NCBI GenBank assembly: GCA_014237395.1
Contig: JABZFP010000028.1
Span: 585-64,584, forward strand
From: Desulfobacteraceae bacterium
GTDB taxonomy: Bacteria > Desulfobacterota > Desulfobacteria > Desulfobacterales > UBA5852
Reading direction: 5' to 3'
DNA length: 64,000 bases
Shown here: in pieces, positions 5,985-59,772 of the stretch
Position numbering within the stretch: the first letter of the stretch is position 1
How the letters are laid out: every line of letters starts with the position of its first letter
Position numbers and translations under genes: made by a program
Notes under the pieces: generated by a model
What the model was told of the DNA's origin: nothing
The model's database searches: none
The model's input: only the letters and a program-made list of their open reading frames with translations

Positions 5985-6108
5985 CAGGTTGTAGGTTTTG
6001 GTTCCGGGCAAGGCCGCAGCCCATTGGACACCGCAGGCGTAGCTGCGCTACGTCGAGGACGTGCGATGGGCGAGAACGCCGCCCGGGGGAAAAAGATGCT
6101 GCCTGGTG
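5985..6108 (-). repeat. TCCTCGACGTAGC-family repeat (copy in - orientation)
   Basis: The reverse complement reads ggcagcatctttttcccccgggcggcgttctcgcc...tcctcgacgtagcgcagctacgcctgcgg...ctgcggccttgcccggaaccaaaacc, which aligns by eye with 18481-18637 and 18672-18785. Confidence 0.7.
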
Positions 6109-6138
6109 ACAGCCACCCTAAACAAAGGAACAAGAACA

Positions 6139-7953
6139 ATGGCCCAACAAATTGCCGACCGTCGCGACATCGATTTTGTTCTGCACGAACTTCTTGAAAT
6201 CGAGAAGTTGACCGAAACGAAAAAATTCGGGGAATTCAACCGCAAGGCCTTCGACCTGATCCTCAATGAGGCCCGGCGCTTCGCCATCAAGGAACTGTTG
6301 CCCACCTATGAGGAAGGCGACCGTATCGGCGTCCGCTATGAGGGCAACGGCACGGTCAAGGTGCCGGACAGCTTTCACCGGGTGCATAAGCTCTACCTGG
6401 AAAGCGAATGGACGGCCCCGGCCATGAATCCGGAATACGGCGGGCAGGGCCTCCCCCACTCCCTGGCGGTTGCCGCGGACGAATACCTCATGGGTGCCAA
6501 CTGGGCCATCAGCGCCTATGGTTCGATGGGCGCCGGCACCGGCTACATGATCGAGAATTACGGTACCGACGAACAGAAAAAGACCTATCTGAAAAAACTA
6601 TACATCGGCGAGTGGGGCGGCACCATGCTGCTGACCGAATCGGAAGCCGGGTCCGACGTCGGCAACCTGTCCACCACGGCCGTGCGCAACCCCGACGGCA
6701 CCTTTTCGCTGACCGGCAACAAGATCTTCATCACCAACGGCGAGCACGACCTGGTGGACAACATCATTCACCCGGTGCTGGCGCGCATCGAAGACGACCC
6801 GGCCGGCACCAAGGGCATTTCCATCTTTATCGTGCCCAAATATTTCGTCAATGAAGACGGCAGCCTGGGAGACCGCAACGACATCGTCTGCACCGGCGTC
6901 GAAGAAAAGCACGGCATCCATGCCAGCGCCACCTGCAGCATGGCGTTGGGGACAAAAGGCCAGTGCATCGGCTACCTGCTGGGCGAAGAGAAAAAGGGCA
7001 TGCGGATCATGTTCCAGATGATGAACGGCGCCCGCCTGGGGACCGGCCTGCAGGCCCTGGCCCATGCCTCCACCGCCTACCTCTATGCCCTGGACTATGC
7101 CCGCAAACGCATCCAGGGCCGCGACCTCGAGGATTTCAAGAATCATGGAGCCCCCTCGGTCGCCATTATCCGCCACCCTGACATCCGCCGCACCCTGCTG
7201 TGGATGAAAGCCCACGTGGAAGGCCTGCGCGCCCTGATCTACTATTGCTGGAATCTGATCGACCAGGCGGTGGCCTCCGAATCGGAAGAAGAGCAGACCT
7301 ATCTGATGGACCTGGTGGGGCTCATCACGCCCATCATCAAGGGCTACGGCAGTGAGCGCGGCTACGATGTCTGCGTGCAGGCGATCCAGGTTTTCGGGGG
7401 GGCCGGCTACACCCGGGACTACCCGGTGGAAGCCATCGCCCGGGACTGTAAAATCACCACCATCTTCGAGGGCTGCACCGGCATCCAGGCCCTGGATCTC
7501 TTGGGCCGCAAGCTGGGCATGAAAAAAGGCGCCATCTATATGGACTTCATCGGAAAGATGAAGGCGGCGGCCGAAGCCGGTAAAAATCAAACGGCAACAA
7601 CCGATATGGCAGGGCGATTCGACGCCGTCGTGGACCGACTGGGGCAAGTGGCCTTCCATCTGGGCCAATCCGCCATGTCGCCCAAGTTCAAGGCCGCCTT
7701 TTCCCACTCGGTCCCTTTCCTGGACGTCATGGGGGATGTGATGATGGCCTGGATGCTCCTCTGGCGGGCCACCGTGGCCGCCGAAAAGCTTGAAGCGGCT
7801 AAAAAGAAGGACAAGCAGTTCTACCAGGGCCAGATCCAGACCGCAGAATTTTTCATCCGCACCATCCTTCCGGTCACGCTGGGCAGGATGGATGCCATTG
7901 AGGACTGCAACGATGCGGCGGTGGTGATGGAAGAAGCCGCCTTCGGCGGCTGA
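6139..7953 (+). CDS. acyl-CoA dehydrogenase, long form (~604 aa) with extra C-terminal helical domain
   Basis: ORF 6061..7953 trimmed to MAQQIADRRDIDF (RBS aaagga). Motifs LLTESEAGSDV, KIFITNGEHD, GGAGYTRDYPVEAIARDCKITTIFEGCTGIQ. Confidence 0.85.
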   Translation: MAQQIADRRDIDFVLHELLEIEKLTETKKFGEFNRKAFDLILNEARRFAIKELLPTYEEGDRIGVRYEGNGTVKVPDSFHRVHKLYLESEWTAPAMNPEYGGQGLPHSLAVAADEYLMGANWAISAYGSMGAGTGYMIENYGTDEQKKTYLKKLYIGEWGGTMLLTESEAGSDVGNLSTTAVRNPDGTFSLTGNKIFITNGEHDLVDNIIHPVLARIEDDPAGTKGISIFIVPKYFVNEDGSLGDRNDIVCTGVEEKHGIHASATCSMALGTKGQCIGYLLGEEKKGMRIMFQMMNGARLGTGLQALAHASTAYLYALDYARKRIQGRDLEDFKNHGAPSVAIIRHPDIRRTLLWMKAHVEGLRALIYYCWNLIDQAVASESEEEQTYLMDLVGLITPIIKGYGSERGYDVCVQAIQVFGGAGYTRDYPVEAIARDCKITTIFEGCTGIQALDLLGRKLGMKKGAIYMDFIGKMKAAAEAGKNQTATTDMAGRFDAVVDRLGQVAFHLGQSAMSPKFKAAFSHSVPFLDVMGDVMMAWMLLWRATVAAEKLEAAKKKDKQFYQGQIQTAEFFIRTILPVTLGRMDAIEDCNDAAVVMEEAAFGG

Positions 7954-8374
7954 TTTTTCACCACGAAATACATGAAGGACATAAAGAAAACCATATTAGG
8001 ACACGGATGAACACAGATAAACACGGATAAAAAATTAGAACATATTCTACCATGAAGAACATGAAGCACTTGAAGGGTAAAATCAAAAGCTAAAAGTTTA
8101 ACACCATGAAGGGAAACGAAGTGGGAAGACGACCAGCTATCGATCGTATATTTGGACCAATTTGTCGCCGACAAATTGATATCTTCATGCGCTTCATGTC
8201 CTTCATGGTGAAAACAGCTTTTTGCTGTTTTTTTACCCCTTCCACCCCTTCGTGTTCTTCGTGGTAAAAAAGTTTTTGGTGTTGCTTTTCCTATCAGTGT
8301 TGAGCTTGGTGCGTTTATCCCAATTTAATCAGTGTCTATCGGTGTCACTCTGTGGCTAAAAAAGGAATTTTATT
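7954..8374. repeat. HEG-box/DTD-box mosaic, symmetric around a 21-bp palindrome
   Basis: HEG+ 7959-7988, DTD+ 7999-8030 (three exact 10-bp units 8001/8011/8021), HEG+ 8048-8077, HEG+ 8102-8128, palindrome 8158-8178 caatttgtcgccgacaaattg, HEG- 8183-8210, HEG- 8238-8266, DTD- 8292-8346. Confidence 0.9.
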
Positions 8375-9244
8375 ATGAAAATCGACGACATCAAAAAGAT
8401 TTGTGTGGTAGGCGCCGGCAACATGGGTCACCAGATTGCCACCCTGTGCGCTCTGAACGGCTTCCAGACGTCCTGCACCGACATCGACCAGACCACCCTC
8501 GACAAGGCTGCCGCGTTTGCGGATCACTACCTGCCCGGGCGGGTGGCCAAAGGCAAACTCACCGAACAGGCCGCCAAGGAAACCCGCGAGCGGTTGACGT
8601 TCACACCAAATCTGGCGGAGGCCGCCGAGGGCGCCGATTATGTGATCGAGGCCGCGGTGGAGGTTCTTGAGATCAAACGCCGGATCTTTGCCGACCTCGA
8701 CGACATGACCCCGGCCCACGCTGTTCTGGCCACCAACAGTTCGGCCATTGTCAGCTCGAAAATCGCCGACGCCACCGGCCGCCCGGACAAGGTGGTCAAC
8801 CTGCACTTTTTCAACCCCGCCCTGGTGATGAAGCTGGTGGAGGTCGTCCAGGGACCGCACGTGTCCCAGGAAACCGCCGACCTTTCCATGGCGTTGTGCG
8901 AAAAGTTGGGCAAAGCGCCAGTTCGCCTCAATAAAGAGGTCAACGGCTTCCTGCTGAACCGCATCTTCTTCGCCATCATCAAGGAAGCCGAATGGCTGCT
9001 GGAAATGGGGGTCGCCTCGGTCGAAGATATCGACAAGGCCTGCGTCTTCGGTGCCGGCCACCCCATGGGGCCCTTCCGCCTGATGGATCTCACCGGCATC
9101 GACCTGGCCTACACCATGGGCATGGAAGCCTTCCGCAATTCAGGGGACCGATCAGATCTGCCGGTACCCAGCCTCGTTAAACATTTTGTGAATGGCGAAT
9201 ACGGACAAAAGACGGGGCAGGGCTGGTACGACTATAAAGAATAA
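8375..9244 (+). CDS. 3-hydroxyacyl-CoA (3-hydroxybutyryl-CoA) dehydrogenase, NAD-binding
   Basis: 289 aa. Rossmann motif KKICVVGAGNMGHQIA and the HFFNPALVMKLVEVV motif of the 3HCDH family. Confidence 0.9.
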   Translation: MKIDDIKKICVVGAGNMGHQIATLCALNGFQTSCTDIDQTTLDKAAAFADHYLPGRVAKGKLTEQAAKETRERLTFTPNLAEAAEGADYVIEAAVEVLEIKRRIFADLDDMTPAHAVLATNSSAIVSSKIADATGRPDKVVNLHFFNPALVMKLVEVVQGPHVSQETADLSMALCEKLGKAPVRLNKEVNGFLLNRIFFAIIKEAEWLLEMGVASVEDIDKACVFGAGHPMGPFRLMDLTGIDLAYTMGMEAFRNSGDRSDLPVPSLVKHFVNGEYGQKTGQGWYDYKE

Positions 9245-39219: not shown

Positions 39220-39912
39220 ATGGCCAAAGAAACCATTCTGGTGGTTGACGACGAAGAGGATATTCTGGAGCTGGTGCGGCACCATCTCAAACGCGAGGGC
39301 TATGCGGTCCAGTGCGCCGACTCCGGTGAAAAAGCGCTCACGGCCGCCCGCACCGGTCCCGTGGACTTGATCGTACTGGATCTCATGCTGCCGGGCATCG
39401 ACGGTCTGGAGGTGACCCGCCAGCTGAAAAACGCCCCCCAGACCAAACACATCCCCATTCTCATGCTGACCGCCAAGGGCGAGGAATCGGACGTGGTCAC
39501 CGGGTTGGAACTCGGCGCGGATGATTACGTTACCAAACCGTTCAGTCCCCGTATCCTGATCGCACGCACGCGCGCCATTATGCGCCGCGGCAGCCGTGAA
39601 ACACTCGATGAGACGGCCGTGATCCGGGTGCATGACATCGAAATCCATCCGGGACGCCGCACCGTAACGCTTCAGGGGGAACCGGTCACGCTGACCTATA
39701 CCGAATTTCAGGTTCTCAGCATCCTGGCCCGCCGACCGGGCTGGGTATTTACCCGTTCGCAAATCGTGGATATGGTGCGCGGCGACGATTATCCGGTGAC
39801 CGACCGCTCGGTGGATGTTCAAATTGTCGGCCTGCGCAAGAAACTGGGTCGCTTCGGCGACACCATCGAAACCGTTCGGGGCGTCGGCTATCGCTTCAAA
39901 GAAACCTCATGA
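39220..39912 (+). CDS. phoB: phosphate regulon response regulator (OmpR/PhoB family)
   Basis: 230 aa. Receiver domain (ILVVDDEEDI, DLMLPGIDG, LTAKG) plus a winged-helix C-terminus (VRGVGYRF). Overlaps the kinase gene by 4 nt. Pho context: pst/phoU nearby and a Pho-box-like repeat upstream. Confidence 0.8.
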   Translation: MAKETILVVDDEEDILELVRHHLKREGYAVQCADSGEKALTAARTGPVDLIVLDLMLPGIDGLEVTRQLKNAPQTKHIPILMLTAKGEESDVVTGLELGADDYVTKPFSPRILIARTRAIMRRGSRETLDETAVIRVHDIEIHPGRRTVTLQGEPVTLTYTEFQVLSILARRPGWVFTRSQIVDMVRGDDYPVTDRSVDVQIVGLRKKLGRFGDTIETVRGVGYRFKETS

Positions 39913-41675
39913 AACGCAAACGCTTGGTCTGGCAGATTTTCCCGTCCTTTCTGTTGATCACCCTCCTATCGATTATCACAGCCATCTGGTTTGCCTCACA
40001 TGCCATGGAGCGGTTCTTTCTGGACCAGACCGCAACAGACCTGACGGACCGCATCACCCTGGTCCGCTACCAGATCGAACCCCACTTTCGGCCGCTGCAG
40101 GCCGATCGCATCGACCGCATTTGCAAAGAGGCCGGCCAGCTTTCTTCGACACGCTTTACGGTCATTCTACCCGATGGCACCGTGGTCGGCGACTCCCAGG
40201 AAAACCCGTCCCACATGGACAACCATGCCGGGCGTCCGGAAATCAACGCGGCCAGGCAGCACGGATCCGGGCAATCGGTTCGCTATAGCAAAACCCTCGA
40301 CCGCCGTTTGATGTATGTCGCCGTGGCCGTCACCGTGGATAACGAACTGACGGGCGTCGTTCGAGCGGCCTTCGCGGTCAACGCCCTGGATGAACGGATG
40401 GGCGCCATTCGCTGGCGGATGGCTGGGGGCGGCGCGCTTATCGCCATTCTGGTGGGATTGATCAGCCTTCTGGCAGCGCGCAAAATAAGCCATCCCATCG
40501 AAAGGCTCAAGCAGGGCGCCGATGCCTTTGCCGCCGGCAACCTGACCGACAAGCTGGCCCTGCCCGAAACCGAGGAACTGGCCGGATTGGCGCAGGCCAT
40601 GAACCAGATGGCCGCCCGCCTGGACCGCCGGATCGCCAGCGCCATCCAACAGAAAAACGAGCTGGAAACCGTTCTGTCGAGCATGCGCGAAGGGGTGGTG
40701 GCCATCGACAGCAATGAAGCCATCATGAGCATGAACCCGCTGGCCGCGGAAATGTTTGAGTGCGATCGCGAACGCGCGAAAAACCGCAGTATTCAGGAAA
40801 TAGTCCGCAACCTCGCCCTGCAGAATTTCGTGGCCAAGGCGGTGAAGGCGGAAGATTCGCTGGAAGACGATATTCCGTTCTTCCGCCAGGCGGAACATAT
40901 CCTCAATATCAAAAGCTCGCCCATCGTCGACAGCAATGAAAAACGCATCGGCACCCTCCTGGTCATGACGGACGTCACGCGGTTGCGGCGCCTGGAACAC
41001 ATGCGGCGCGACTTTGTGGCCAATGTCTCCCATGAAATCAAAACGCCCCTGACCGCCATCAAAGGCTATGTGGAAACCCTTTTCAATCGCGAAGTGGATT
41101 CAGCGGAAGACACCCACCGGTTTCTGGGAATCGTCATCAAACATGTCAATCGGCTGGAATCCATTGTGGAAGACCTTCTCGCCCTGTCGCGCATCGAACG
41201 GGAAAATTTCCGGGAAGCGCTCAATCTCGCCACGGTGCGACTGGGGAACATTTGCCAGACCGCCATCCAGGTCTGCCATAAAAATGCCGAAGCCAAACAC
41301 ATTGCCATCGACGTCCAATGCGGGGAAGACTTGCAGGCCACCGTAGATGCCACCCTGCTGGAGCAGGCCATTGTCAATCTTCTGGACAACGCCATCAAAT
41401 ACAGCGAGGACGGCAGTCGTGTCGAGATCAGCGCCGAAAACCGCGATGGCATGACCGCCATCCATATCCGGGACTATGGCTGCGGGATCGCCCAGCGCAA
41501 TCTTTCACGCCTGTTCGAGCGATTTTATCGGGTGGACAAGGCCCGCAGCCGCCAACTGGGCGGGACGGGGCTGGGGCTGGCCATTGTCAAGCATATCGTG
41601 CAGGCGCACGAGGGTGAAGTAACGGTGGAAAGCCGGCTGGGAGAGGGAAGTACGTTTTCGATTTATCTGCCCTGA
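39909..41675 (+). CDS. phoR: phosphate regulon sensor histidine kinase
   Basis: 588 aa. 2 TM, HAMP, PAS, H-box [18 protein letters not shown] boxes ([19 protein letters not shown]). Confidence 0.75.
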
Positions 41676-42202: not shown

Positions 42203-42566
42203 AAAAAAAATGGGCGGCTAAGGGGCGGGCAGCACCGGCATCCGTTAATGCGAAATGCGACGCGGGGGATGACCGGCAGCGCTGGTGGCCCCATTGACCA
42301 CCCCCTCGTTCGCGAATTCAATCGACCCCACCACTCATCAATACCCGATCGCGTGTCAATTAACACGATCCTCACACACCTCTAACATCTTCCATATGGA
42401 CCGGTGGGTATGCATGGCATCAGATGCCCCTGAAGGTATTGCAACGGCATTCCGACACCATGGATCCGACCGTCCTGCGGGAGGGCCGATTCGCGCTCAC
42501 GATATCCATCGCATCTATCCATGCGAAGCACCTAAGCTCATCTGCTGTGTCAGAAGGACTTTTCGT

Positions 42567-42932: not shown

Positions 42933-45362
42933 ATGCCATCGACCGCTGCCCAGTTAAACGTGATCCGCCCCCAAGCCTTTCGTCCCCTTTCAGCGAAGGC
43001 GGTACCATCGATGGCGGATCGATTGGGGATCGACGCCCGCACGGCGGAATCGCTGGCGCGAACCCTCCCATTTTCCGGGGAAGATACGACCGCCGGTGTC
43101 GAGAACGAAATTCAGGCCTCCGTGGCGGGAGAAGCCTCCCGGGTGGATCTGCCCATGTCCATCGCGGCTTCCGAAGTCTTTGACCATATTCGTCAGATGG
43201 CCCGGGCGGGTGATACGTCGCCGAAACTAAAAGAGGACCTGGACGCCTACCTCGATCACAACACCGATCGGATATGGGAGAACAGCTGGGTCCAATTCCC
43301 CGAAGACCGGCTATCCGCCTTCGCCCGCAAGGTTTTCGAAAACGATCTGCGATCCGACAAGCAGGATCTTGACAGTCCTTTGCGACAGGATGCGGACCGT
43401 TTCCATTGCCACCGCAACGGAGAGCCGCATATCCGCGTTCCAATCAGCTACCTGATGAAACTGGCTTTGGCCGAAGCCGTCAGCGATCCCCAACTGGATC
43501 CAATGATCCGGACGGAAGCCCGTCGCATGATGGCACACTTTATCAGTGACAACACCTCCCCGGAAACCCATTCGTTTCATACGCCCACCCTCAGGCCCGG
43601 GCCGCGGATGGGGGCCGCCATCGCCGATGAGACCGCCCAACGCCTCCTGTTTTCCCAACTTCTCGTGATGTATGCAAACCGACGGTTCAACCTGCTGTCC
43701 GACGGCCAGCGTGCCCTGATCTATATGGCACCGCATCCGCCACAGCGGCAAAAGCGACTGAACGAACTCATTCCGGATGCCTTTTACCGGGAGCTTTTTA
43801 TGAGCCCGTGCCTTTCCGGATGGGATCGGGGCGAGGAAAAGCAGGCCTACATGGCCCACTGCCATAAAGTGCTTTCCCGCAGTCAGCTCAACGCCGTCAA
43901 AAAGCTCCGGGACGCCGGTATCATCACGCGCAATCTCGTGGTTCTGCCCAATCTGTCCAATACCAGTCTGGCCAACAACGGGACCCATATGAGCATCGGC
44001 AGCCGCATGCTCAGTCGGCAACTGAAAGCGTCCCACCCGGGATTCGGTGCCCGCGAGGAAAAATGGCTCGGCGATCTCGCCATCAAAATTCTGGAGCATT
44101 TTCTCCCGCTGTTCGTCGGGACCTACAGCGGGGCACCGTATCGGCTCGATTTCAGTGACATGCATCCCGAAAAGGCGCTCAGTTTTCTGCCCCATGAGCT
44201 TCATGAAATCCATTTGCGTATGATCTGGCGGCGCTGGAAAAAGAAAGCCCGCATGAAGATCCTGGGGAAATCCATCACCCCCTTCGGGCCGGCCTGGATC
44301 GATCGTTCGCTCGCCCGTTGCCTGCAATTGAAGGGCGACTTTGTGACCGACTTCCGCCTGGTCGACTACATGGCCTGCCTGATGAGCACCCATACCGCAG
44401 GCGCCTTGAACGGCACCGTCGGCAATGATGCCAAATTGAAAGCCGACCTGACGTCGTTGGGAACGTTTCACACAACCATGCCGCTCTACCTGCTGTATCG
44501 GCTGCGGCGCTATGACGAACTTGGCTTTTCGGGTTTTGAAGGACGCCACTACAGTCAATTTGAAAGCATCCAGAACGATCTGGGACACGCCGCAAGCCTC
44601 CAGGTGCTGCTGTCGGCGCTGTCCTTTCACTATATTTTTCGCGACGGCATTCACCATGTCGACATTCCGGACACCCCCCGGATTGAAAGTGAGCGTCGGC
44701 AGATTTTTTTTGCCGCGGCCATTGGCATTCCAACCGTCTATATCCACCGCCAGAGCCGCAACCGTTTTCTGCAGCGGCTTCTCCGGGATATTCCGGAAAC
44801 CCGCTTCAGCCATCGTTATCCGGGATATGTCCGGGTCAAGATCAAGGCCTACCAACGGGCCCTGGTGCGCATCATCCGACGGGATGCGCCCGAACTGATC
44901 GAACAATTTCAGGCCGGGACATGCCTGGATGACCTGGAAGCCCGCCTGGCGTCTCCCCGGGACGGTGCTGCCGGTCGGCTGACCCGCGGCATCCTGAACG
45001 AAGCTGGTGCCAAAGCCCCCTTGCAACTTCCCGCGGAAGCTTTCAACCAGGCCGGCGAACAATATTATCGCGAAACACTGCGCCGCAAGCATATGGAGGA
45101 AGGTCTCGATTTGTTTGAAAAGGCGCTGGCCACGATCGACGCCCCCGCCATCTGGCGGCAAGGTCGTTATAACCGCCCCCTCTACCAGCTTCTCCGGGGA
45201 AGAAATGCAGGGGAATTTCTGGCGCGCCAGCGACAGGCCCTGCTGTTCGAAATGGCCTCGGAGGAAACACTGGCCAAACTCATTCATTTATTCATCCTGA
45301 CGACCTTGAAAGCACGCCACGAAGATGCCTCGCAGGCTTCGCCCTCCGGGGAAAAGGACTGA
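42933..45362 (+). CDS. large hypothetical protein (809 aa), no recognisable domain
   Basis: RBS ggaggaag 4 nt upstream. Long clean ORF; its stop overlaps the next start (TGATG). First gene of a 3-gene operon. Confidence 0.8.
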   Translation: MPSTAAQLNVIRPQAFRPLSAKAVPSMADRLGIDARTAESLARTLPFSGEDTTAGVENEIQASVAGEASRVDLPMSIAASEVFDHIRQMARAGDTSPKLKEDLDAYLDHNTDRIWENSWVQFPEDRLSAFARKVFENDLRSDKQDLDSPLRQDADRFHCHRNGEPHIRVPISYLMKLALAEAVSDPQLDPMIRTEARRMMAHFISDNTSPETHSFHTPTLRPGPRMGAAIADETAQRLLFSQLLVMYANRRFNLLSDGQRALIYMAPHPPQRQKRLNELIPDAFYRELFMSPCLSGWDRGEEKQAYMAHCHKVLSRSQLNAVKKLRDAGIITRNLVVLPNLSNTSLANNGTHMSIGSRMLSRQLKASHPGFGAREEKWLGDLAIKILEHFLPLFVGTYSGAPYRLDFSDMHPEKALSFLPHELHEIHLRMIWRRWKKKARMKILGKSITPFGPAWIDRSLARCLQLKGDFVTDFRLVDYMACLMSTHTAGALNGTVGNDAKLKADLTSLGTFHTTMPLYLLYRLRRYDELGFSGFEGRHYSQFESIQNDLGHAASLQVLLSALSFHYIFRDGIHHVDIPDTPRIESERRQIFFAAAIGIPTVYIHRQSRNRFLQRLLRDIPETRFSHRYPGYVRVKIKAYQRALVRIIRRDAPELIEQFQAGTCLDDLEARLASPRDGAAGRLTRGILNEAGAKAPLQLPAEAFNQAGEQYYRETLRRKHMEEGLDLFEKALATIDAPAIWRQGRYNRPLYQLLRGRNAGEFLARQRQALLFEMASEETLAKLIHLFILTTLKARHEDASQASPSGEKD

Positions 45363-46444
45363 TGGCGACGCCTTGCATGGACACGCCCATCGCCTCTTCC
45401 GAAAGGCACAATCACATGCGCATGCTTGCCCGACCTGAGCATCAATACATCCAGCGTCATACCGGCCGCGTGGTCACCGAACGCTTGTTTTCCGACCGGA
45501 TCATCCACCTGCTCTATGCCCATGCCCGGGAAAATGCGCCACGGGTGTTCGACATGCTGACCTCCCGCCGCGCCAACGACGGGTATGCTCTCTGGCAATA
45601 CGACTTGCCGACACGCCGCTCACCGGCCGCGGTTACACGACTGATCCGGCAACTCGGCATCTGCCTGGAAGAGTGTCTGGCGCCGGAGGCCTTGACGTCG
45701 CCGCGCCGTTTGTTCGAACGGCAGATTCGATTCTGGCAGCACCGCCCCATGGCGAGCGACAAATGCCACATCGTGTCACCCGCCGACGCCCGCATGCTGG
45801 TGGGTGCGTTTGCCAGCCAGTCCCAACTTTTTCTGAAGGAGAAGTTCTTCGATTATCAGGACCTGCTGGGTGCGGATAAACCGAAATGGCTGAATGCTTT
45901 CCGGGGGGGACAGTTTGCCATTTTTCGTCTGACGCCGGAGAAATACCACTATAACCATCTCCCCGTATCCGGTCATGTCCGCGACATCTATGAAATCCAG
46001 GGAGTTTACCATTCCTGCAATCCAGGAGCCGTCGTCCGCATGGTAACCCCTTACTCCAAGAACCGGCGGGTCGTCACCATTATCGACACCGATGTCCCCA
46101 ATGGCAGCCATATCGGCCTGGTGGCCATGATCGAGGTCGTGGCGCTGATGATCGGCGACATCGTGCAATGCTACAGCGCACATCATTACGATGCCCCGCG
46201 CGCGGTTGCGCCGGGAATGTTTCTCAAGCGCGGGCAGCCGAAAAGTCTCTACCGCCCGGGCAGTTCGGTCGACGTCCTTCTTTTCCAGAAAAACCGCGTC
46301 CGCTTCTGTGACGACATCCTGTCCAATCAGCACCACCTTTCAGCCCACAGCCGTTTTTCTTCCGGCTTCGGACGCCAGTTGGTCGAAACCGATGTCCGGG
46401 TGCGTGAAACCATCGCCATGAAAGGAACTCATGATGGCGGATGA
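45362..46444 (+). CDS. phosphatidylserine decarboxylase-like protein
   Basis: 360 aa. PSD-family blocks (SPADARMLVG, FRLTPEKYHYNHLPVSG, VAMIEVVALMIGDI) and a GSS self-cleavage-type site in YRPGSSVDVLLF. Confidence 0.7.
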   Translation: MATPCMDTPIASSERHNHMRMLARPEHQYIQRHTGRVVTERLFSDRIIHLLYAHARENAPRVFDMLTSRRANDGYALWQYDLPTRRSPAAVTRLIRQLGICLEECLAPEALTSPRRLFERQIRFWQHRPMASDKCHIVSPADARMLVGAFASQSQLFLKEKFFDYQDLLGADKPKWLNAFRGGQFAIFRLTPEKYHYNHLPVSGHVRDIYEIQGVYHSCNPGAVVRMVTPYSKNRRVVTIIDTDVPNGSHIGLVAMIEVVALMIGDIVQCYSAHHYDAPRAVAPGMFLKRGQPKSLYRPGSSVDVLLFQKNRVRFCDDILSNQHHLSAHSRFSSGFGRQLVETDVRVRETIAMKGTHDGG

Positions 46445-47489
46445 ACTGTTTGTAGCGGTTTGCAGTCTGTTTACGATGATCTTGTTTCACTGGTCCTTTC
46501 ACCACCTGCCGCAGGAGAAATGGCAGTTCCTGGCCGCTGTTCCAACCTGCAAAGGTCCCGGCAACTGCTGGCAAGGCATCAATCTGACCTATTACGGTTT
46601 TTTCAACGCCACCGCCTATACCCTGGCCTGCATGCTGGTGATTTTTCTCACCGCTGCGGCCGGCATTCCGATAGGGTATACGCTGGCACTGCTGGTGATC
46701 ATTCTGGGCGTCTGCATGCCGGGATCCCGCATCGTCGCCCGCGTGGTCGAAAAAAAGCCGCATACCTTCAGTGTCGGCGGCGCTTTTTTTATCGGGATTC
46801 TGCTGACGCCCCCCCTGTTGATGCTGACCCAGCCCCTGGCAGTGCGCTGTTTCCAAGCCACCGTCGATCCTGTGGTTTTTCTATCGGCGGTGGCGATCGC
46901 CTATTGCTGGGGCGAAGGCATCGGACGGCTGGCCTGCATCAGTTTCGGCTGTTGCTATGGCAAACCGCTGTCCGAGGTCCATCCTCTCTTGCAACGGCTT
47001 TTTCACCGTTGGCATTTCATTTTCCACGGTCCCACCCGTAAAATCGCCTATGCCCATCATCTCGACGGTGTGCAGGTTGTGCCTGTGCAGGCGATTACCG
47101 CCGTACTCTACAGCCTGACCGCCCTGGTCAGCCTGTATGCCTTTCTCAACAACTATTTCCGAACGGCCATGCTGCTGTCCCTGATCGTCAGTCAATTATG
47201 GCGGTTTGCCTCGGAGTTCCTGCGGGCTGATTACCGGGGCGAACGCCGTATCAGTGCTTACCAGTATATGAGTTTGTTGGCCGTCGCGGTTGCGCTGGTA
47301 TTGGCCGGCATGCCTTTCGACGCACCGTCGCTGCCGGTTGCACACATCATCCTGGGCTTAACGGTCCTCTGGCACCCGGCCATGCTGCTTTTTCTGCAGG
47401 TGTTGTGGGTCGCCGCCTTCATCTACACCGGGCGCAGCAGCGTCACCGGTGCGACGATTGAATTTCACGTGCACCAGCATCTCACGTGA
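46431..47489 (+). CDS. prolipoprotein diacylglyceryl transferase (Lgt)-family membrane protein, atypical
   Basis: 352 aa, polytopic. GRLACISFGCCYGKP (Lgt GRxGxxxxGCCYG-type block) and WRFASEFLRADYRG (Lgt RFxxEFxRxD block). Overlaps the PSD-like gene by 14 nt. Confidence 0.65.
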   Translation: MMADELFVAVCSLFTMILFHWSFHHLPQEKWQFLAAVPTCKGPGNCWQGINLTYYGFFNATAYTLACMLVIFLTAAAGIPIGYTLALLVIILGVCMPGSRIVARVVEKKPHTFSVGGAFFIGILLTPPLLMLTQPLAVRCFQATVDPVVFLSAVAIAYCWGEGIGRLACISFGCCYGKPLSEVHPLLQRLFHRWHFIFHGPTRKIAYAHHLDGVQVVPVQAITAVLYSLTALVSLYAFLNNYFRTAMLLSLIVSQLWRFASEFLRADYRGERRISAYQYMSLLAVAVALVLAGMPFDAPSLPVAHIILGLTVLWHPAMLLFLQVLWVAAFIYTGRSSVTGATIEFHVHQHLT

Positions 47490-47826: not shown

Positions 47827-47933
47827 AAAAAAATTATTTCAACGATTTTTTAAGGAATAATCCCTGCCGATCGCAGGAAGAGGGGTCTCGGGAGCAGGTA
47901 CCAAAGCAACGATAGCATGGATAAGGCGGACAA

Positions 47934-48536
47934 CTACGGCGCGGTGGTATCGACCCGGCGATCCTTCTTCCTCTGGATCGCATCCCGCCGACGCGCCCGC
48001 CATCGCCTGCCGATCACCAGGCTCGCCAGCAGCACCATGCAGAGCAGCGCATACTTCTGGATCGATCGCCCTTCGAGGATCAGCCGCTGAAAGACCTCGC
48101 CGAAAAAATAACCGCCGGTTCCGATGACCGTGGCCCATACCATGGCACTGGCGGCACTGAGCAGGGTGAACGTGCACACACGGCATCGCCCGGACCCAAG
48201 CAGAAAAGGGATCACCGCGCGCATGCCGTAAATAAATCGATAGAGCAGGATGACAATACTTTGCCGGTGGTTCAGCCAGCGGCCGGCACGGTCGAGTTTC
48301 CGCTGCCACGCCGCCCGGTGACCCAAAAGACAGGCGCCTTTGAGGCGCCCCAACTGAAAAAAAAACTGATCGCCGGCAAAGGCGCCGGCGGCCGAAGCCA
48401 ACAAGACCGCTTTAAAGTCCAGCAGGCCCTGCTGGACAAGAACGGCCGCGATCAGCAAGACCGTTTCACCCTCGAGCACGGCACCGATGAAAATGGCCGT
48501 GTAGCCGTATTGGGCGACAAAGGATTCCACGCTCAT
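47934..48536 (-). CDS. DedA family membrane protein
   Basis: 200 aa. YGYTAIFIGAVLEGETVLL and GDQFFFQLGR motifs. Confidence 0.85.
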   Translation of the reverse strand: MSVESFVAQYGYTAIFIGAVLEGETVLLIAAVLVQQGLLDFKAVLLASAAGAFAGDQFFFQLGRLKGACLLGHRAAWQRKLDRAGRWLNHRQSIVILLYRFIYGMRAVIPFLLGSGRCRVCTFTLLSAASAMVWATVIGTGGYFFGEVFQRLILEGRSIQKYALLCMVLLASLVIGRRWRARRRDAIQRKKDRRVDTTAP

Positions 48537-48579: not shown

Positions 48580-48789
48580 TCAAGATAGATGACCGTGGAT
48601 CAAATCGAGGGTGGGAACAGCATGCTCCGCTTGCTGTCGTGTTATTTCCGTGGCACTCAAACGCAGCGCCATCATCATTTCGGTATGGTCAAAGAGCTCA
48701 ATCCGCTCCGGATTGACCCGAAACACCTCATGCGTATCGGGATGAAAAATATAAATCTCGTCGTTCAACAGCAAATACTTTTCCGTCAT
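48580..48789 (-). CDS. small hypothetical protein (69 aa)
   Basis: ORF 48580..48954 trimmed to MTEKYLLLNDEIYIF behind aagga. Sits 13 nt after the zinc-ribbon gene. Confidence 0.5.
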   Translation of the reverse strand: MTEKYLLLNDEIYIFHPDTHEVFRVNPERIELFDHTEMMMALRLSATEITRQQAEHAVPTLDLIHGHLS

Positions 48790-48802
48790 TGAAATTTTCC
48801 TT

Positions 48803-48985
48803 TTAGGACCGTCTTGGCGGCAGATGCAGAGGATAACCATTATCGACCGCCAGTGCGGCGCTGAACTCCAGATCGCAGGCCAGTCGCCGCAAATAGGCCA
48901 TGCGTTTGTCGCACACGCGGCACTGGCTGTTGTTCTTATCTTTGTGCAGGCCATGGCACTGACGACAAGGATTGAGTCGATTCAT
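48803..48985 (-). CDS. small zinc-ribbon protein (60 aa)
   Basis: ORF 48803..49081 trimmed to MNRLNPCRQCHGLHKDKNNSQCRVCDK (CxxC-X12-CxxC) behind a strong RBS aaggagg. Confidence 0.6.
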   Translation of the reverse strand: MNRLNPCRQCHGLHKDKNNSQCRVCDKRMAYLRRLACDLEFSAALAVDNGYPLHLPPRRS

Positions 48986-49131: not shown

Positions 49132-50556
49132 TTAGCGCCGAATGACCATGCGGTTAGAATCAAATGATGGTGTCATCTTCCGGACCACGGGTTGGATGCC
49201 ATTGCCTGCCCTAAAGCGCCGCAAGCGCTCCGGCCGGGCCGGGCGGCGGCCGTCGAAAAAATCACAGGCCTGATAATAGTGCAGGTCCTTCAGCCACAAT
49301 TTTATGAATCCGGCATCTTTCCACCATCGGCGCAGGGATTTAAACGGGTGCCGCACCAAATCCTGAAGGGGCCCCCCCAGTTCCGAAGGATCACGAAAAC
49401 ACTCCCATTCACAGGCATAGCACGCCCTGCTGTCACCACCAGGCATCGTCGGCCGATCGCTAAAAACGCCCAGATCTTCTTCACCGCGATATCCGCAGGG
49501 ATAGGTATGTCCTGTAACAGCGTCAATAAAAAAGAAATCCTTGCCGCCACGGCATGGGTATCCGCGTTCGCCACGGCCGAATTGCCGTTTGAGCGCGTCG
49601 AGCGCGAAGAGGGGTGTAAAAATCCTCAGACGCGCGCGATTTTCCCTTACGGATTGACCGAGCACATCAAAAAGGTGGGCTTTTTCCCGGGAGGAAAACG
49701 ACACGATGGCCGATGTCGCCGTGGCGCCATAGACCGCATTCAGCTCACCGCTGCCACCATCATCCGCGATACTCATGGGATAGCAGACATTCGCGGTCGA
49801 AAAGCCCATCCCGGCCACAAATTGAAAAAAGCGGGAAAGCCCTGAATGGAGACGTTCACGAAAGACCGCGACCGGGACGCCCTTGGCCCCAGGAACGCCG
49901 TTCTCAAGTACGGGAATGCTTCCGGGACCATCGAGGTTGCGATTGATACCCAGGTTGGCGGAGGGGAACAGGCCGTAGCGGTGAAAAATGGGCAGGGCCC
50001 GTTCGATGCCGCGGATGATTCCGGGAAACCCCCGCATTTTTTCGTGGGTGGCCGGATCCGCGGAATCGATACTGATCCAGAAATTGCGCAGAGGGGTGGC
50101 CGCCAGGGTTTCGGCCAGCCGATGGATGCGGTCGGGAAAATCCGGATTGTCGGGCGACCGGAAGACAAAACCGTTGGTTCCCGTCCGGATGTAGGCGATC
50201 CCTGCGGCACCAGCATGATCGATCAGCGTCACGAGATCCTGCAGCACGAGCAGCGGCTCGCCACCGGTAAAGGAAACAGCGGCGATACCCCGCTGGGCAG
50301 CGGCATCGATCATGCGCTTGACGTCATCCAGCGGCAGGCTGTGCCGCGGAAAGTGTTCGTTGATGTTCATCCCGCATTGCGGACAGGTGGCGTTGCACCG
50401 ATCGGTCAATTGGATCACCAACTGACCCGGCAAATTGCCGTGGCGGAGAAGATGGAGCACGTGTCGTAGTTTCATGGATGTTTTTCGAATAGACGGCTGC
50501 TGTAGGTGCTCAGCGGCGGCATTGGAGACGGCATATCCGTTCTGGTAAAGTACCAT
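49132..50556 (-). CDS. radical SAM protein with Cys-rich C-terminal extension
   Basis: CNATCPQCG (CxxxCxxC) plus the GGEPLL SAM motif. C-terminal cysteines (CRGG...CGYRG...CYACEWEC) are suggestive of an auxiliary cluster. The start is uncertain (50556 or MKLRHVL at 50475). Confidence 0.8.
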   Translation of the reverse strand: MVLYQNGYAVSNAAAEHLQQPSIRKTSMKLRHVLHLLRHGNLPGQLVIQLTDRCNATCPQCGMNINEHFPRHSLPLDDVKRMIDAAAQRGIAAVSFTGGEPLLVLQDLVTLIDHAGAAGIAYIRTGTNGFVFRSPDNPDFPDRIHRLAETLAATPLRNFWISIDSADPATHEKMRGFPGIIRGIERALPIFHRYGLFPSANLGINRNLDGPGSIPVLENGVPGAKGVPVAVFRERLHSGLSRFFQFVAGMGFSTANVCYPMSIADDGGSGELNAVYGATATSAIVSFSSREKAHLFDVLGQSVRENRARLRIFTPLFALDALKRQFGRGERGYPCRGGKDFFFIDAVTGHTYPCGYRGEEDLGVFSDRPTMPGGDSRACYACEWECFRDPSELGGPLQDLVRHPFKSLRRWWKDAGFIKLWLKDLHYYQACDFFDGRRPARPERLRRFRAGNGIQPVVRKMTPSFDSNRMVIRR

Positions 50557-50569
50557 TCCAACGCAGGCA

Positions 50570-53032
50570 TCAGAAACCGGCCACCCATTGAAACCTTTCT
50601 CCGGCGGAGATGGTCTGGTAAGACTCCCAGGTCTTCAGGAAAGCCGCATCGAACGAGCGCTCTTCCATGGATCGCCGGGCCGCCCGTCCCATGGCCCGCC
50701 GTTGTCGGGGATTCGACAGGATGTCGTTGAGCGCCGCCGCCAGAGCCTCCACATCGTTGCCGGGAACGACGCGTCCTGTCGTGTCGGGAAGCATGTTTTC
50801 GCAGGGGCCGCCCTGATCCGACACCACCACCGGCAGCCCGGAGGCCTGGGCTTCCAGGACCACATTGCCGAACGTATCCGTCGTACTGGGGAACACGAAG
50901 ATGTCTGCCGAAGCGTAGGCTTTGGCAAGATCGTCGCCTGCAAGAGCACCGGTAAAGGTGCACGGCAAATCGCTTAGCAGCGCCTTCATTTCGTTCAAAT
51001 AGGGGCCATCGCCCACAATCACCAGATGGGCTTGGGCCTGTCTGGCATAAAGAAGGCGGAAAGCGTCCCCGAGAACCGCCAGGTTTTTTTCTTTGGAGAT
51101 CCGCCCGACATACAACAGTTTGGTCGATGCGGCCACCCCGTAGGATTGCTCGAAAAAGCCGTTTCGTTTTTCCGGTGAAAACCGTTCCGTATCGATGCCA
51201 CGGGGATACAAAGCGATCTTGTCGCCATTGATCCCGCGCGCGATCAGTTCCTGACGCGTATCTTCGGACGGCGCATAGATCAGGTCCATCTGGTCGTAGT
51301 ACCAGACGACAAATTTCCAGGTGAGCTCCGCCATAGCGTCATCACCGGTGAGAAACTGGGCATATTGCGGCAGCTGGGTATGGTAGGTGCCGCAGATCGG
51401 CAGTTTCAAGATGCGCGCAATGGCCAGAGCGGCCAGACCGATCGGACCCGGGGTGGCGGAATGGATGCGGGTGAAACCCTGTTCGTAGCAGTACCGCAGC
51501 ATTTCCATCAGCGGGGGATAAAACAGCTTCTGCTCAGGGTATTCGGGCAGGTCATACGTGCCGATCGGCTGGAAGGCCTTGACCCCCGGTTGGGACAGAT
51601 GCGGATCTTCATTGCAGGTGATCACCTGCAGCGACTTGCCGTGCCGCAGGGCCACCTGCACCTGCTGTTGCAGGGTCAGGGCCACGCCGTTGGTGTCATA
51701 GAAAGTGTCCGTAAAATGACCGACCCGCAGCGTGTCGGCGGTCCCGGCATTGGCCGGGGACGGAACACCGAAATGGTCTCGAACGGCATGCGTAAAGTCA
51801 CGATCCTTTGAAAAGAGAGAAAACGCGATAAAGTAAGGGGCCAGCAGGCCATATAGTCCACCGGCCGATCCAAGTGTATGGAAGATATTGAAGACATTTC
51901 CACCGAGCAGATGATTCATGGCATGATTGGCAAAATTGATCAGGGCCTGGTTGGACACCTGGTTCACGAAATCGAACCACCCGATTTCCGGCGGGAGATC
52001 ATTCTGTGCGCCCGTCAGGGCCAAGCGCTTGAATTGCCGGTCATCTTTCAACAGACTGGCGGTGGTATGCCGCAGCAGACCGATAAGATCATCGGAAACC
52101 GGTTCGGGCCGGGTGCGCCGATGGGCGTTTAGAAAACAATAGACCTTGTCGATCAGGCGGCCATCATGACCCTTGCCGTCACAGCCGTTGGGCCGCAGCG
52201 ACCGGTCGAGATATTTGATCAGAAGATCTTTTCCCTGGAAACGTTCCAGGTTGAATTTGCTCCGGTAGTACTGATAGGCGATACTGTAAAAATTGTGCGC
52301 CATGGTTTCCGGGAGGGAGGGCTGTCGTACGGCCCGGCTTTGCCCGTTTTCAAGGCCCGCCAGACCGTCCTTCAGATTCCCGGCACCGGGAATTTCAGTG
52401 AAGGTCCGCGCAATGTTCAGGGAACTGTGGTCATCCGATCCGCCGGTGATATTTTTTTCCCACGGCTCCGGAAAGGCCGGATCGATGCCGTGGCGGTCGC
52501 TTAGCGCCTCGATCATATCCGGCGAGAGGGCCTTCAATACCGCTTCGAGCCCCTCATTGGCCACATCGTTGCGGGCCCCGTTCATCTCGAAATTCTTGAA
52601 GAGCAGCAGCATTTTCTCGAAGTGCTCGATGCTCAACCGATCATTGACACCGTAAAGGGGATGTGCCACCACGTGCACGATCCCCTGCGCCCGCAGATAG
52701 TCCACCAAATAAAACACGTTGTCCCGGCACTGCTGGATGTCGGCATGCTGGCGCTCGGTGATGTCCAGTGCCAGCACGTGCAGCTTGCATCGATCCTCGG
52801 GGAAATAGGTGGTAATCTCTTCGCTAATAAAGGTGTGCGGCAAATGGGCGATTGCCAAAGCGCCCTCGATCCGGTTATGATCCGAAATCGTCACGTGTGT
52901 CATGCCACGCGCAAGGGCAATCCGGTAGATATCCTGCGGCTCTGTGAAGCTTTCCGGGCAACCGATTTTTTTCAATACCCAGGCCGAAGGCCGCTTGGAG
53001 TATTTGGAATGAACATGAAGGTCAACACGCAT
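50570..53032 (-). CDS. PHP-domain phosphoesterase fused to GT4 glycosyltransferase (820 aa)
   Basis: N-terminus MRVDLHVHSKYS...TISDHNRIEG (PHP metal-binding His/Asp). C-terminus GRISKEKNL...FPSTTDTFGNVVLEAQASGLPVVVS (GT4 E-x7-E). Confidence 0.85.
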   Translation of the reverse strand: MRVDLHVHSKYSKRPSAWVLKKIGCPESFTEPQDIYRIALARGMTHVTISDHNRIEGALAIAHLPHTFISEEITTYFPEDRCKLHVLALDITERQHADIQQCRDNVFYLVDYLRAQGIVHVVAHPLYGVNDRLSIEHFEKMLLLFKNFEMNGARNDVANEGLEAVLKALSPDMIEALSDRHGIDPAFPEPWEKNITGGSDDHSSLNIARTFTEIPGAGNLKDGLAGLENGQSRAVRQPSLPETMAHNFYSIAYQYYRSKFNLERFQGKDLLIKYLDRSLRPNGCDGKGHDGRLIDKVYCFLNAHRRTRPEPVSDDLIGLLRHTTASLLKDDRQFKRLALTGAQNDLPPEIGWFDFVNQVSNQALINFANHAMNHLLGGNVFNIFHTLGSAGGLYGLLAPYFIAFSLFSKDRDFTHAVRDHFGVPSPANAGTADTLRVGHFTDTFYDTNGVALTLQQQVQVALRHGKSLQVITCNEDPHLSQPGVKAFQPIGTYDLPEYPEQKLFYPPLMEMLRYCYEQGFTRIHSATPGPIGLAALAIARILKLPICGTYHTQLPQYAQFLTGDDAMAELTWKFVVWYYDQMDLIYAPSEDTRQELIARGINGDKIALYPRGIDTERFSPEKRNGFFEQSYGVAASTKLLYVGRISKEKNLAVLGDAFRLLYARQAQAHLVIVGDGPYLNEMKALLSDLPCTFTGALAGDDLAKAYASADIFVFPSTTDTFGNVVLEAQASGLPVVVSDQGGPCENMLPDTTGRVVPGNDVEALAAALNDILSNPRQRRAMGRAARRSMEERSFDAAFLKTWESYQTISAGERFQWVAGF

Positions 53033-53226
53033 CGGCGATTCCTTTTCTGTACGATCTCGATTGGGGTCCTTATTCGTTCCATCAAATCGCCTTGAACTAT
53101 TTCGCTGTTAAGCTCAAATGAGCCTCTGTTTAGGAATTCATTAGCAAAAGAAAAACCGTCGTATTGCGCGCACCTGCCCTCTGACGAAAAGTAAAAAATT
53201 ATAAAAATCAGCTGATTATCGAAACC

Positions 53227-53270
53227 CTAACGCATTTCTAACGTTCGTCTAACAATACTTGCCCTATATG
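53227..53270 (+). promoter_or_regulatory. candidate Pho box (3 units) and -10, upstream of phoU
   Basis: CTAAC at 53227, 53238 and 53249 (perfect 11-bp phasing); TATATG at 53265-53270, 11 nt after the last unit. Confidence 0.6.
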
Positions 53271-53379: not shown

Positions 53380-54036
53380 ATGGCCAGACACTTTCATAAA
53401 GAACTTGAAAAAATCAAAAAAATGATCCTGTCGCTCGGCGCGATGGTCGAAGAGCGCGTGCGGCGGATTGCAACCGCCATCACCGAACGGGATGGCGACC
53501 TGGCGCAGGAACTCATCCGCTCGGATTTTGAAATCGATGAAATGGAAGTGGAAATCGAGGAGGAGTGCCTTAAGATCATGGCGCTGCATCAACCGGTGGC
53601 CATCGACTTGCGCTTTCTCGTCGCCGTCATCAAAATCAATAACGACCTGGAGCGCATCGCCGATGAAACGGTCAATATCGCCCAGCGCATCAAAACCATG
53701 ACAAAAGACAGCCCGGCCAGCTTTTTTTTCGACTACGACCCCATGAGCGCGGAAGTCGAAAACATGCTGAAACTGAGCCTCGATGCCCTAGTCAACATGG
53801 ACGTGGACACCGCCTTCAAGGTCGTTACCATGGATGACGATGTCGACAGCATCCACCGCCAAGTATACCAGCTCATCTGCGATGAAATGGCCCATCATCC
53901 GGACCAGATGGCCTTTTTGATCAACTTTTATCTGATTTCACGCCATCTGGAACGTATCGGCGATCACGCCACCAACATCGCCGAAGAAGTGATTTATCTG
54001 ATCGAGGGCGAAATCGTCCGGCATGCCGATTATTAA
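53380..54036 (+). CDS. phoU: phosphate transport system regulator PhoU
   Basis: ORF 53323..54036 trimmed to MARHFHKELEKIKK. Two PhoU repeats (NNDLERIADE / SRHLERIGDH). Confidence 0.9.
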   Translation: MARHFHKELEKIKKMILSLGAMVEERVRRIATAITERDGDLAQELIRSDFEIDEMEVEIEEECLKIMALHQPVAIDLRFLVAVIKINNDLERIADETVNIAQRIKTMTKDSPASFFFDYDPMSAEVENMLKLSLDALVNMDVDTAFKVVTMDDDVDSIHRQVYQLICDEMAHHPDQMAFLINFYLISRHLERIGDHATNIAEEVIYLIEGEIVRHADY

Positions 54037-59625: not shown

Positions 59626-59743
59626 CCCCGTTAAACCCCCTCCGCCTGAAACCCATGCATTTTTCATGAAGAACATGACATTGCATTCCACAACCCCTGT
59701 ATCTGGACCCTGCAAAAACCCTTAACGCCCTCCTAAAAAATGC

Positions 59744-59772
59744 TTGACAGGATTTTGGAATCCGCATATGGT
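59744..59772 (+). promoter_or_regulatory. sigma70-like promoter with palindromic spacer, upstream of the MarR gene
   Basis: TTGACA 59744-59749, 17-nt spacer ggattttggaatccgca (contains GGATT-N4-AATCC), TATGGT 59767-59772. The MNEQ ATG at 59780 lies 7-8 nt downstream of the -10. Confidence 0.5.

Follow-up and report, generated by a model that had tools for sequence, protein, structure and literature searches.

In this study we describe a three-domain fusion gene from a Desulfobacteraceae bacterium, located in a 64,000-nt stretch of genomic DNA (assembly GCA_014237395.1, contig JABZFP010000028.1, positions 585 to 64,584 of the forward strand) that we call the window throughout. The gene (P0001; window positions 50570..53032, minus strand) joins a metal-dependent phosphoesterase barrel of the PHP type (polymerase/histidinol-phosphatase), an all-helical domain and a GT4 glycosyltransferase. 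We think it probable that it is the phosphate-starvation glycolipid synthase (‘Agt’) of sulfate reducers, with the PHP half most likely supplying the lipid acceptor. As such it is a further member of the sulfate-reducer ‘Agt’ family, and the fused PHP/helical module is the unexplored part of that family. An initial annotation, made from the sequence alone, had compared the gene with the two-enzyme route of PlcP plus Agt. The glycolipid and phosphate-starvation side of this analogy is well supported, namely by the Agt signature of the transferase, by a Pho island with a Pho-box-like array at the gene itself and by the genetics of Dde_3613 in another sulfate reducer; its phosphoesterase side is plausible.

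Sulfate reducers and other anaerobes swap nearly all of their phospholipids for glycolipids when phosphate is scarce, and such glycolipids serve as markers by which phosphorus stress is traced in anoxic waters and sediments. In the field the pathway is described as PlcP plus Agt. What is found across the Desulfobacterota is the three-domain fusion. Its phosphoesterase half differs from PlcP in fold, and we found no study of that half; a literature search for PHP together with glycosyltransferase, glycolipid, PlcP, Agt or Desulfovibrio yielded nothing relevant.

Architecture of the fusion protein

The fusion open reading frame (ORF) is a single uninterrupted frame of 820 amino acids (aa), which starts with ATG and has a ribosome-binding site, AAGGAA, 7 nt 5' of it. 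Three parts can be distinguished, all encoded on the minus strand: the PHP barrel (aa 1-240; 52313..53032), the helical domain (aa 241-432; 51737..52312) and the GT4 domain (aa 436-810; 50603..51727). A full-length model (AlphaFold2 with a 50-sequence alignment) reached a pLDDT of 89.6 and a pTM of 0.89, and a separate AlphaFold model of aa 1-432 a pLDDT of 89.9. That PHP and GT4 share one 820-aa polypeptide, as the initial annotation had stated, is confirmed by the ORF, the Pfam GT4 domains and the predicted PHP fold. Its statement that the fused phosphoesterase is unrelated in fold to PlcP held as well: Pfam gave no Metallophos match in the fusion, which is not a member of the PlcP family, and the predicted fold is that of a PHP barrel. 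The source genome carries a single copy of the fusion and no close paralogue of either half.

The glycosyltransferase half

Pfam, Foldseek and the residues D719-x7-E727 and H551 place the C-terminal half among the retaining GT4 glycosyltransferases of the GT-B fold. Pfam found Glyco_transf_4 (PF13439; aa 448-617, E 1e-21) and Glycos_transf_1 (PF00534; aa 637-787, E 4e-36), and Foldseek matched the structures of MshA, BshA, GlgM and PimB' with E values of 1e-18 to 1e-20. An E-x7-E motif had been reported here earlier, which needs correction: the first residue is D719, followed after seven residues by E727. In Pelagibacter GTcp, a biochemically characterised transferase of the Agt clade, an Asp (Asp256) likewise takes the place of the Glu of the MshA signature and pairs with His104 as a dyad (PMC8231724). 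The fusion shows this Agt/GTcp signature, an Asp for Glu in EX7E plus a conserved His, the latter matched by relative position only; all three residues, H551, D719 and E727, hardly vary among 50 homologues. Set beside the published description for GTcp, these residues support the view that the transferase half carries the Agt-clade signature.

A function for such a gene comes from Desulfovibrio (Oleidesulfovibrio) alaskensis G20, in which Dde_3613 is described as ‘glycosyltransferase group I, Agt homolog’ (Bosak 2016, PMC5193443). A transposon mutant in Dde_3613 made no glycolipids under phosphate limitation, having lost MGDG and GADG, and grew poorly at 2-10 uM phosphate (PMC5193443). In the supplementary annotation of that study Dde_3613 appears both as a PHP N-terminal domain protein and as a group 1 glycosyltransferase; its main text contains neither ‘PHP’ nor ‘phospholipase’ (PMC5193443). 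In Desulfatibacillum alkenivorans phosphate limitation likewise leads to replacement of phospholipids, here by glucuronosyl glycerolipids with ether and ester cores, according to a 2024 paper in which the biosynthetic genes are not discussed. A transferase step from UDP-sugar and diradylglycerol to glycosyl-diradylglycerol is well founded, and the sugars are likely to be glucose and/or glucuronic acid, by analogy with G20 and D. alkenivorans.

Could the transferase act on a phospholipid instead? By sequence, the closest curated families and solved structures are lipid-acting GT4 enzymes: the best NCBIfam match is GpgS (NF053787, 146.5 bits), and the closest PDB entries are PimB' and PimA. Hence it might be that the transferase adds its sugar to the head group of a phospholipid, in the manner of GpgS on phosphatidylglycerol (PG) and PimA on phosphatidylinositol (PI), with the PHP domain trimming a phosphate from that product or from a precursor such as PGP or PIP (the phosphates of PG and PI), so that the product would be a glycophospholipid. 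However, the GpgS score stays far under its 480-bit cutoff, the Dde_3613 mutant specifically loses MGDG and GADG, and the DX7E signature is that of the diacylglycerol-dependent Agt clade. A product that keeps its phosphate would also sit poorly with Pho control, and we consider such a product quite improbable.

Fusions of a glycosyltransferase and a phosphatase are typical of sugar-phosphate synthase/phosphatase pathways, and the transferase half has MshA, BshA, GlgM and sucrose-phosphate synthase among its best structural matches. A soluble synthase/phosphatase of the sucrose-phosphate (SPS/SPP) or MshA plus phosphatase type, making a compatible solute or a thiol precursor, could be imagined on these grounds. 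Yet these matches, at only 17-22% identity, reflect the generic GT4 fold, and the fusion reaches 44 bits with the sucrose-phosphate synthase model TIGR02472, whose cutoff is 576. Pfam shows no HAD domain, the phosphatase being of the PHP type, and both the phenotype of Dde_3613 and the gene context, which consists of lipid and Pho genes, point to lipids. The phenotype in G20, a lipid one, and the gene context led us to reject a compatible-solute synthase, and a soluble product of any of these kinds seems to us extremely improbable.

The PHP half and the helical domain

The N-terminal domain is a divergent PHP subfamily. PF02811 matches it with 15.5 bits (E 0.02; gathering cutoff 26.4) over aa 4-60 only, some other members of the fusion family have precomputed PF02811 or PF13263 matches, and relatives are named ‘predicted metal-dependent phosphoesterase TrpH’ by JGI. 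Sequence searches of the PDB with the N-terminal 440 aa (as a single sequence and as a 48-sequence profile; phmmer/hmmsearch) found no PHP protein, and returned only helical or designed proteins at E values of at least 0.002. Fold and motifs are thus the basis of the PHP assignment. In VIA-align comparisons, aa 1-239 matched PHP phosphoesterases best, with Z values of 18.6 for 3e38, 17.7 for 3o0f and 17.1 for 2anu, followed by PsfC (16.5), EndoQ (15.5) and RNase AM (15.0); polymerase PHP domains, YcdX and histidinol phosphatases stood lower in the list. Foldseek matched the N-terminal model to the PHP domain of RNase AM with an E value of 3e-7. The model of aa 1-239 is a distorted (beta/alpha)7 barrel, the hallmark of the PHP superfamily, and at the level of structure prediction the PHP fold of the N-terminal half is confirmed.

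Candidate metal ligands are H6-x-H8, D51/H52, E72, H85, H124 and D200-D201-H202. They lie at or near predicted strand ends, with individual metal sites assigned by motif pattern only, and are invariant or at least 90% kept in 48-50 homologues down to about 30% identity. Because of this conservation the PHP domain is very probably catalytically active. Some PHP domains, for example that of E. coli Pol III alpha, are without catalysis, and a sequence too divergent for the Pfam PHP threshold might be taken to suggest the same here, with the PHP domain as an idle structural or membrane-targeting module for the transferase. The near-invariance of the ligands, however, is the pattern of a selected active site, and we hold an idle domain to be very improbable.

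The helical middle domain contains two very long helices (348-377 and 382-420) with a hydrophobic stretch at about 386-408, as seen in the secondary structure of the models. Pfam, fold comparison and a protein-atlas feature search gave no known fold or family for it. In the homologues examined it invariably accompanies the PHP barrel, and from the models we propose that it may act as a membrane-association module.

What, then, is the substrate of the PHP half? A soluble phosphoester has to be considered, with the transferase half still being a glycolipid synthase. Phosphoethanolamine and glycerol-3-phosphate would be candidates, their hydrolysis as head groups completing phosphate recovery, and so would UDP or another nucleotide, the by-product of the transferase. 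Characterised PHP enzymes are mostly small-molecule monoesterases (for histidinol phosphate or 3',5'-pAp) or nucleases, and the known chemistry of the closest structures, which are of the TrpH/RNase AM type, would fit a soluble substrate better. In addition, a metagenomic contig with a split form of the gene (L156, see below) encodes a separate Metallophos protein that could be the true phospholipase C. On the other hand, the barrel always comes with a hydrophobic helical domain and a lipid glycosyltransferase, which is a poor fit for a freely soluble substrate, and a PlcP-like gene is not evident in the Pho island of the window, although a genome-wide search for one was not made. On balance we regard a soluble substrate, the main alternative to a lipid, as unlikely, while allowing that it would be no great surprise. 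A substrate at the membrane is suggested because the active site is conserved, because the barrel is always coupled to the transferase with a hydrophobic helical domain between them, and because the island has no evident PlcP-like gene. That the PHP half makes diradylglycerol from phosphatidylethanolamine (PE), PG, cardiolipin or phosphatidate is what we infer from this, with chances that appear about even.

Pho boxes in the shared spacer

The fusion gene lies divergent to phoU (53380..54036, plus strand; TIGR02135, 207 bits, above cutoff), and the 347-bp spacer between them, reported in the initial annotation, is real, with the phoU ATG at 53380. The best Pho box of the window had been placed in this shared spacer. 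The box exists, but it serves phoU, and the fusion has a second, more degenerate array of its own. The phoU box consists of TTATC and three CTAAC units in 11-bp phase (53216..53253, plus strand; the CTAAC units at 53227-53253), is directed at phoU and is invariant in four relatives. A three-unit YTAAY/M motif with 11-bp phase has seven matches in the window, all on the plus strand, where 0.03 would be expected; five of them precede a phoB-like gene, phoU (two overlapping matches), pstC and pstS. Since all copies are on the plus strand and five of them stand in front of pho genes, the CTAAC box in the spacer is that of phoU. The other two matches have one mismatch each: one (42360-42386, plus strand) lies about 550 nt 5' of a gene for an 809-aa protein, and the other (59722-59748, plus strand) overlaps the start of an ORF at 59744 that precedes a DsrE/TusA cluster.

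The Pho-box-like array directed at the fusion lies at 53107-53144 on the minus strand, that is, at -112 to -75 from its ATG, and has four units (CTAAT, CTAAA, CTCAT and TTAAC) in 11-bp phase. All four units are kept in the spacers of three relatives (L002, L074 and L075), whose fusion proteins are 67-76% identical to that of the window, and the flanking sequence has diverged. Direct repeats in 11-bp phase that are directed at the gene, the feature by which Pho regulon members are recognised, are present upstream of the fusion. An ATAGTT hexamer lies 6 nt past the last repeat and is not conserved; a sigma-70 promoter scan upstream of the fusion gave nothing convincing.

The array is not a peculiarity of the window. 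Allowing at most one mismatch and counting within 250 nt of the fusion start, we found three-unit arrays in gene orientation in 23 of 120 upstream regions, a count that should be read as a pattern and not as a probability because the loci are mutually related and a few are the same contig twice. Dinucleotide shuffles gave a mean of 0.49 and a maximum of 3 (100 shuffles), and arrays in the opposite orientation were present in 9 of the 120 regions. MAGs (metagenome-assembled genomes) assigned to Hydrogenedentota and Syntrophales are among the array-bearing loci. The shuffles and the opposite-strand comparison replaced an earlier control with ORF-masked ‘intergenic’ DNA, which had given only 1.3-fold enrichment and was judged flawed, as it consisted of AT-rich remnants, was counted in both orientations and still contained the tested upstream regions along with other Pho promoters.

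Adjacency to pho genes is a different matter. In 6 of 42 and about 14 of 80 loci, drawn from several families, the fusion has genuine pho genes within 6-10 kb; the members of these two locus sets are related and in part duplicated between the sets. In Desulfosarcina alkanivorans the fusion is not adjacent to pho genes. Because pho genes are near only some fusion loci and absent beside that of D. alkanivorans, the adjacency to phoU is lineage-specific. Control of the fusion by a Pho box looks more general than this adjacency, as judged from the upstream sequences.

Distribution of the family

The fusion forms a large family and is far from rare, which makes it much less of a novelty than it seemed at first. 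Of 401 genomes sampled from the phylum, 68 have the N-terminal module (52 of 255 genera), as do 121 of 251 from the Desulfovibrionaceae (43 of 72 genera), where the homologues are full-length; published genetics exist for the family. An index of 5.8 billion proteins gave more than 6000 matches to the fusion, the top 120 of which are all about 815 aa long, and a HMMER search with the N-terminal 440 aa gave 1022 cluster representatives at E <= 1e-10. Seven sampled matches of about 590-670 aa end inside the GT4 domain and look like contig-end fragments. Named carriers include Desulfovibrio, Nitratidesulfovibrio, Pseudodesulfovibrio, Solidesulfovibrio magneticus, Desulfosarcina, Desulfatitalea, Desulfatibacillum and Syntrophobacteraceae; among MAGs, the fusion is carried by Desulfatibacillum, Desulfatibacillaceae, Hydrogenedentota, Anaerolineales, Sedimentisphaerales and Bacteroidales.

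The PHP half was found either fused to a GT4 domain or directly upstream of one. In the split cases the N-terminal module has its own gene (428-448 aa), and a GT4 gene of 381-389 aa comes next, overlapping or 6 nt away. Since the split PHP modules directly precede a GT4 gene, the two halves are obligate partners.

Several split or extended forms deserve mention. In the metagenomic contig L156 (4011-11049) a 430-aa PHP/helical gene overlaps a 389-aa GT4 gene; a 614-aa OlsF-like bifunctional acyltransferase of the ornithine-lipid type is encoded upstream, and PhoH and a 358-aa Metallophos protein downstream. This locus looks like a compact phosphate-starvation lipid cluster. Split PHP/helical and GT4 genes, 6 nt apart or overlapping, also occur in L157 and L158 (Desulfosarcina cetonica draft, 6001-8444), either naturally or through sequencing frameshifts, and these adjoin a cassette that encodes an 809-aa protein, a phosphatidylserine decarboxylase (PSD)-like protein and an Lgt-like protein. 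In P0299, a protein of 1045 aa from a 5.5-kb JGI contig, the PHP-GT4 fusion is joined to a phosphatidylserine-decarboxylase domain (PF02666), which could be a Rosetta-stone link of the glycolipid gene to the PSD-like/Lgt-like cassette or a gene-calling artefact. Finally, ESM Atlas clusters of ‘hypothetical proteins’ of 305-467 aa, mainly from Verrucomicrobiota and Planctomycetota, match the PHP and helical domains (TM by query 0.62-0.89) and have no GT4 domain by Pfam; these may represent forms of the module that stand alone outside the Desulfobacterota.

Genomic neighbourhood

The window holds a Pho island composed of phoB/phoR-like genes (39220-41675), a plus-strand operon (42933-47489) with genes for an 809-aa protein without family match, a PSD-like and an Lgt-like protein, the fusion operon, phoU and pstC-pstA-pstS-pstB. 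The fusion is the first gene of its minus-strand operon. A radical SAM gene follows 13 nt downstream (49132..50556, minus strand; Pfam Radical_SAM), then two small ORFs of 60 and 69-70 aa (about 48580-48954, minus strand; no Pfam match) and, as the last sizeable gene of the cluster, a membrane protein of the DedA/VTT family (47934..48536, minus strand; Pfam VTT_dom, NCBIfam DedA/UptA-like). A terminator-like hairpin at 47861-47879 on the minus strand, about 55 nt past the DedA stop, may mark the end of the operon.

Close relatives keep the order of fusion, radical SAM gene, two small ORFs (60 and about 70 aa) and DedA-family gene, and the small ORFs are kept between the radical SAM and DedA genes in relatives with 72-76% identical fusion proteins (L002, 14030-14435; L074, 14133-14541). 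A radical SAM gene adjoins the fusion in 8 of the 42 and 26 of the 80 loci. Among these loci, some of which belong to other phyla, are those of Solidesulfovibrio aerotolerans, of a Sedimentisphaerales MAG and of the Desulfatibacillum and Desulfatibacillaceae MAGs. The radical SAM protein has about 420-470 aa, a Cys-rich C-terminal half and generic MoaA/SPASM-type matches only. Its role may be to modify the glycolipid or the ether/ester core of that lipid, and the DedA/VTT protein is possibly a lipid flippase. In 8 of 42 and about 9 of 80 loci, again from several families, the fusion has the 809-aa/PSD-like/Lgt-like cassette nearby. The cassette also stands beside the fusion in Desulfosarcina alkanivorans, where pho genes are not adjacent.

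Discussion

Taken together, the following mechanism might be proposed for the fusion and its operon. At low phosphate, PhoB would bind the four-unit array and switch on the operon of fusion, radical SAM gene, two small ORFs and DedA. The helical, hydrophobic middle domain would hold the PHP domain at the membrane, where it would most likely supply the acceptor by hydrolysing a glycerophospholipid, acting either as phospholipase C or as phosphatidate phosphatase, and would thus be a non-homologous replacement of PlcP. The GT4 domain would then move glucose and/or glucuronic acid from the UDP-sugar to the free hydroxyl of diradylglycerol, so that phosphorus-free monoglycosyl and glucuronosyl glycerolipids could replace PE, PG and cardiolipin. 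The PHP substrate, the membrane binding, the sugar used and the control by PhoB are the parts of this scheme that we infer.

A bolder proposal, which we consider possible though somewhat less than probable, is that the N-terminal module is the first PHP enzyme acting on membrane glycerophospholipids and passes diradylglycerol, at the membrane, straight to the active site of an Agt-type transferase. In that case it would be the fusion, and not a PlcP/Agt pair, that chiefly makes phosphate-sparing glycolipids in anaerobic Desulfobacterota and in scattered Hydrogenedentota, Planctomycetota and Acidobacteriota, and the as yet unassigned synthase of the glucuronosyl ether lipids of Desulfatibacillum would be included.

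Several points weigh against a lipid-active PHP half or against parts of the wider scheme. The nearest PHP structures (RNase AM/TrpH, Cv1693, EndoQ and polymerase PHP domains) belong to proteins that work on nucleotides or nucleic acids, and we know of no lipid-active PHP enzyme. The hydrophobicity of the middle domain is modest, with a Kyte-Doolittle 19-residue maximum of about 1.4 at aa 389-390, under the usual transmembrane threshold. As to the genetics, the orthology of Dde_3613 and the fusion is concluded from annotation, architecture and family-wide presence and not from an alignment. Furthermore, the position of the transposon within Dde_3613 is not given, and the G20 phenotype can therefore be assigned to neither half. 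The YTAAH repeats are read as a putative PhoB site because they precede the phoB-like gene, phoU, pstC and pstS, and the loci counted above are related to one another, some being duplicated between the two sets.

If indeed the PHP half yields diacylglycerol, a new substrate class would be added to the PHP superfamily, and an explanation would be at hand for the phospholipase step, on which the G20 study is silent. A single marker gene with its own Pho box would then be available for phosphorus limitation in anoxic metagenomes. The fusion is also a concrete candidate gene for the glucuronosyl ether lipids described for Desulfatibacillum in 2024.

Comparison with known systems

TrpH/RNase AM, Cv1693 and other PHP proteins (7ug9, 9etk, 2yb1, 3e38, 3o0f and 2anu) share with the fusion the distorted barrel and the His, Asp and Glu ligands at strand ends. 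However, their identity to the fusion is only 13-21%, they have neither a helical domain nor a glycosyltransferase, and the known substrates of the TrpH/RNase AM and Cv1693 types are nucleotides or RNA. GpgS, the GlcNAc-PG synthase of P. aeruginosa and the best curated match, resembles the transferase half as a GT4 enzyme acting on a membrane glycerolipid and is encoded in an operon with a putative flippase (PMC12713373). Unlike the enzyme proposed here it alters the head group of PG and keeps the phosphate, has no PHP domain and belongs to a different family (146 bits for the fusion, against a cutoff of 480).

In logic, the fusion is closest to PlcP plus Agt/GTcp of Alpha-, Beta- and Gammaproteobacteria and SAR11, a Pho-controlled phosphoesterase with a GT4 transferase making MGlc-DAG or GlcA-DAG. 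PlcP, however, is a calcineurin-like metallophosphoesterase, whereas the phosphoesterase of the fusion is a PHP barrel, of an unrelated fold, joined to the transferase through an extra helical domain. Agt (Atu2297) and GTcp are stand-alone enzymes of about 334 aa with 46-58% identity within their clade, to which the fusion is likened by its signature. A further system close to the fusion is that of Dde_3613. A neighbourhood of radical SAM, DedA or phoU genes is not reported for it, and the fusion proteins of Desulfovibrionaceae are about 43% identical to that of the window. Dde_3613 comes from the same phylum and has the same annotated two-domain architecture, and the fusion is found in about half of the sampled Desulfovibrionaceae.

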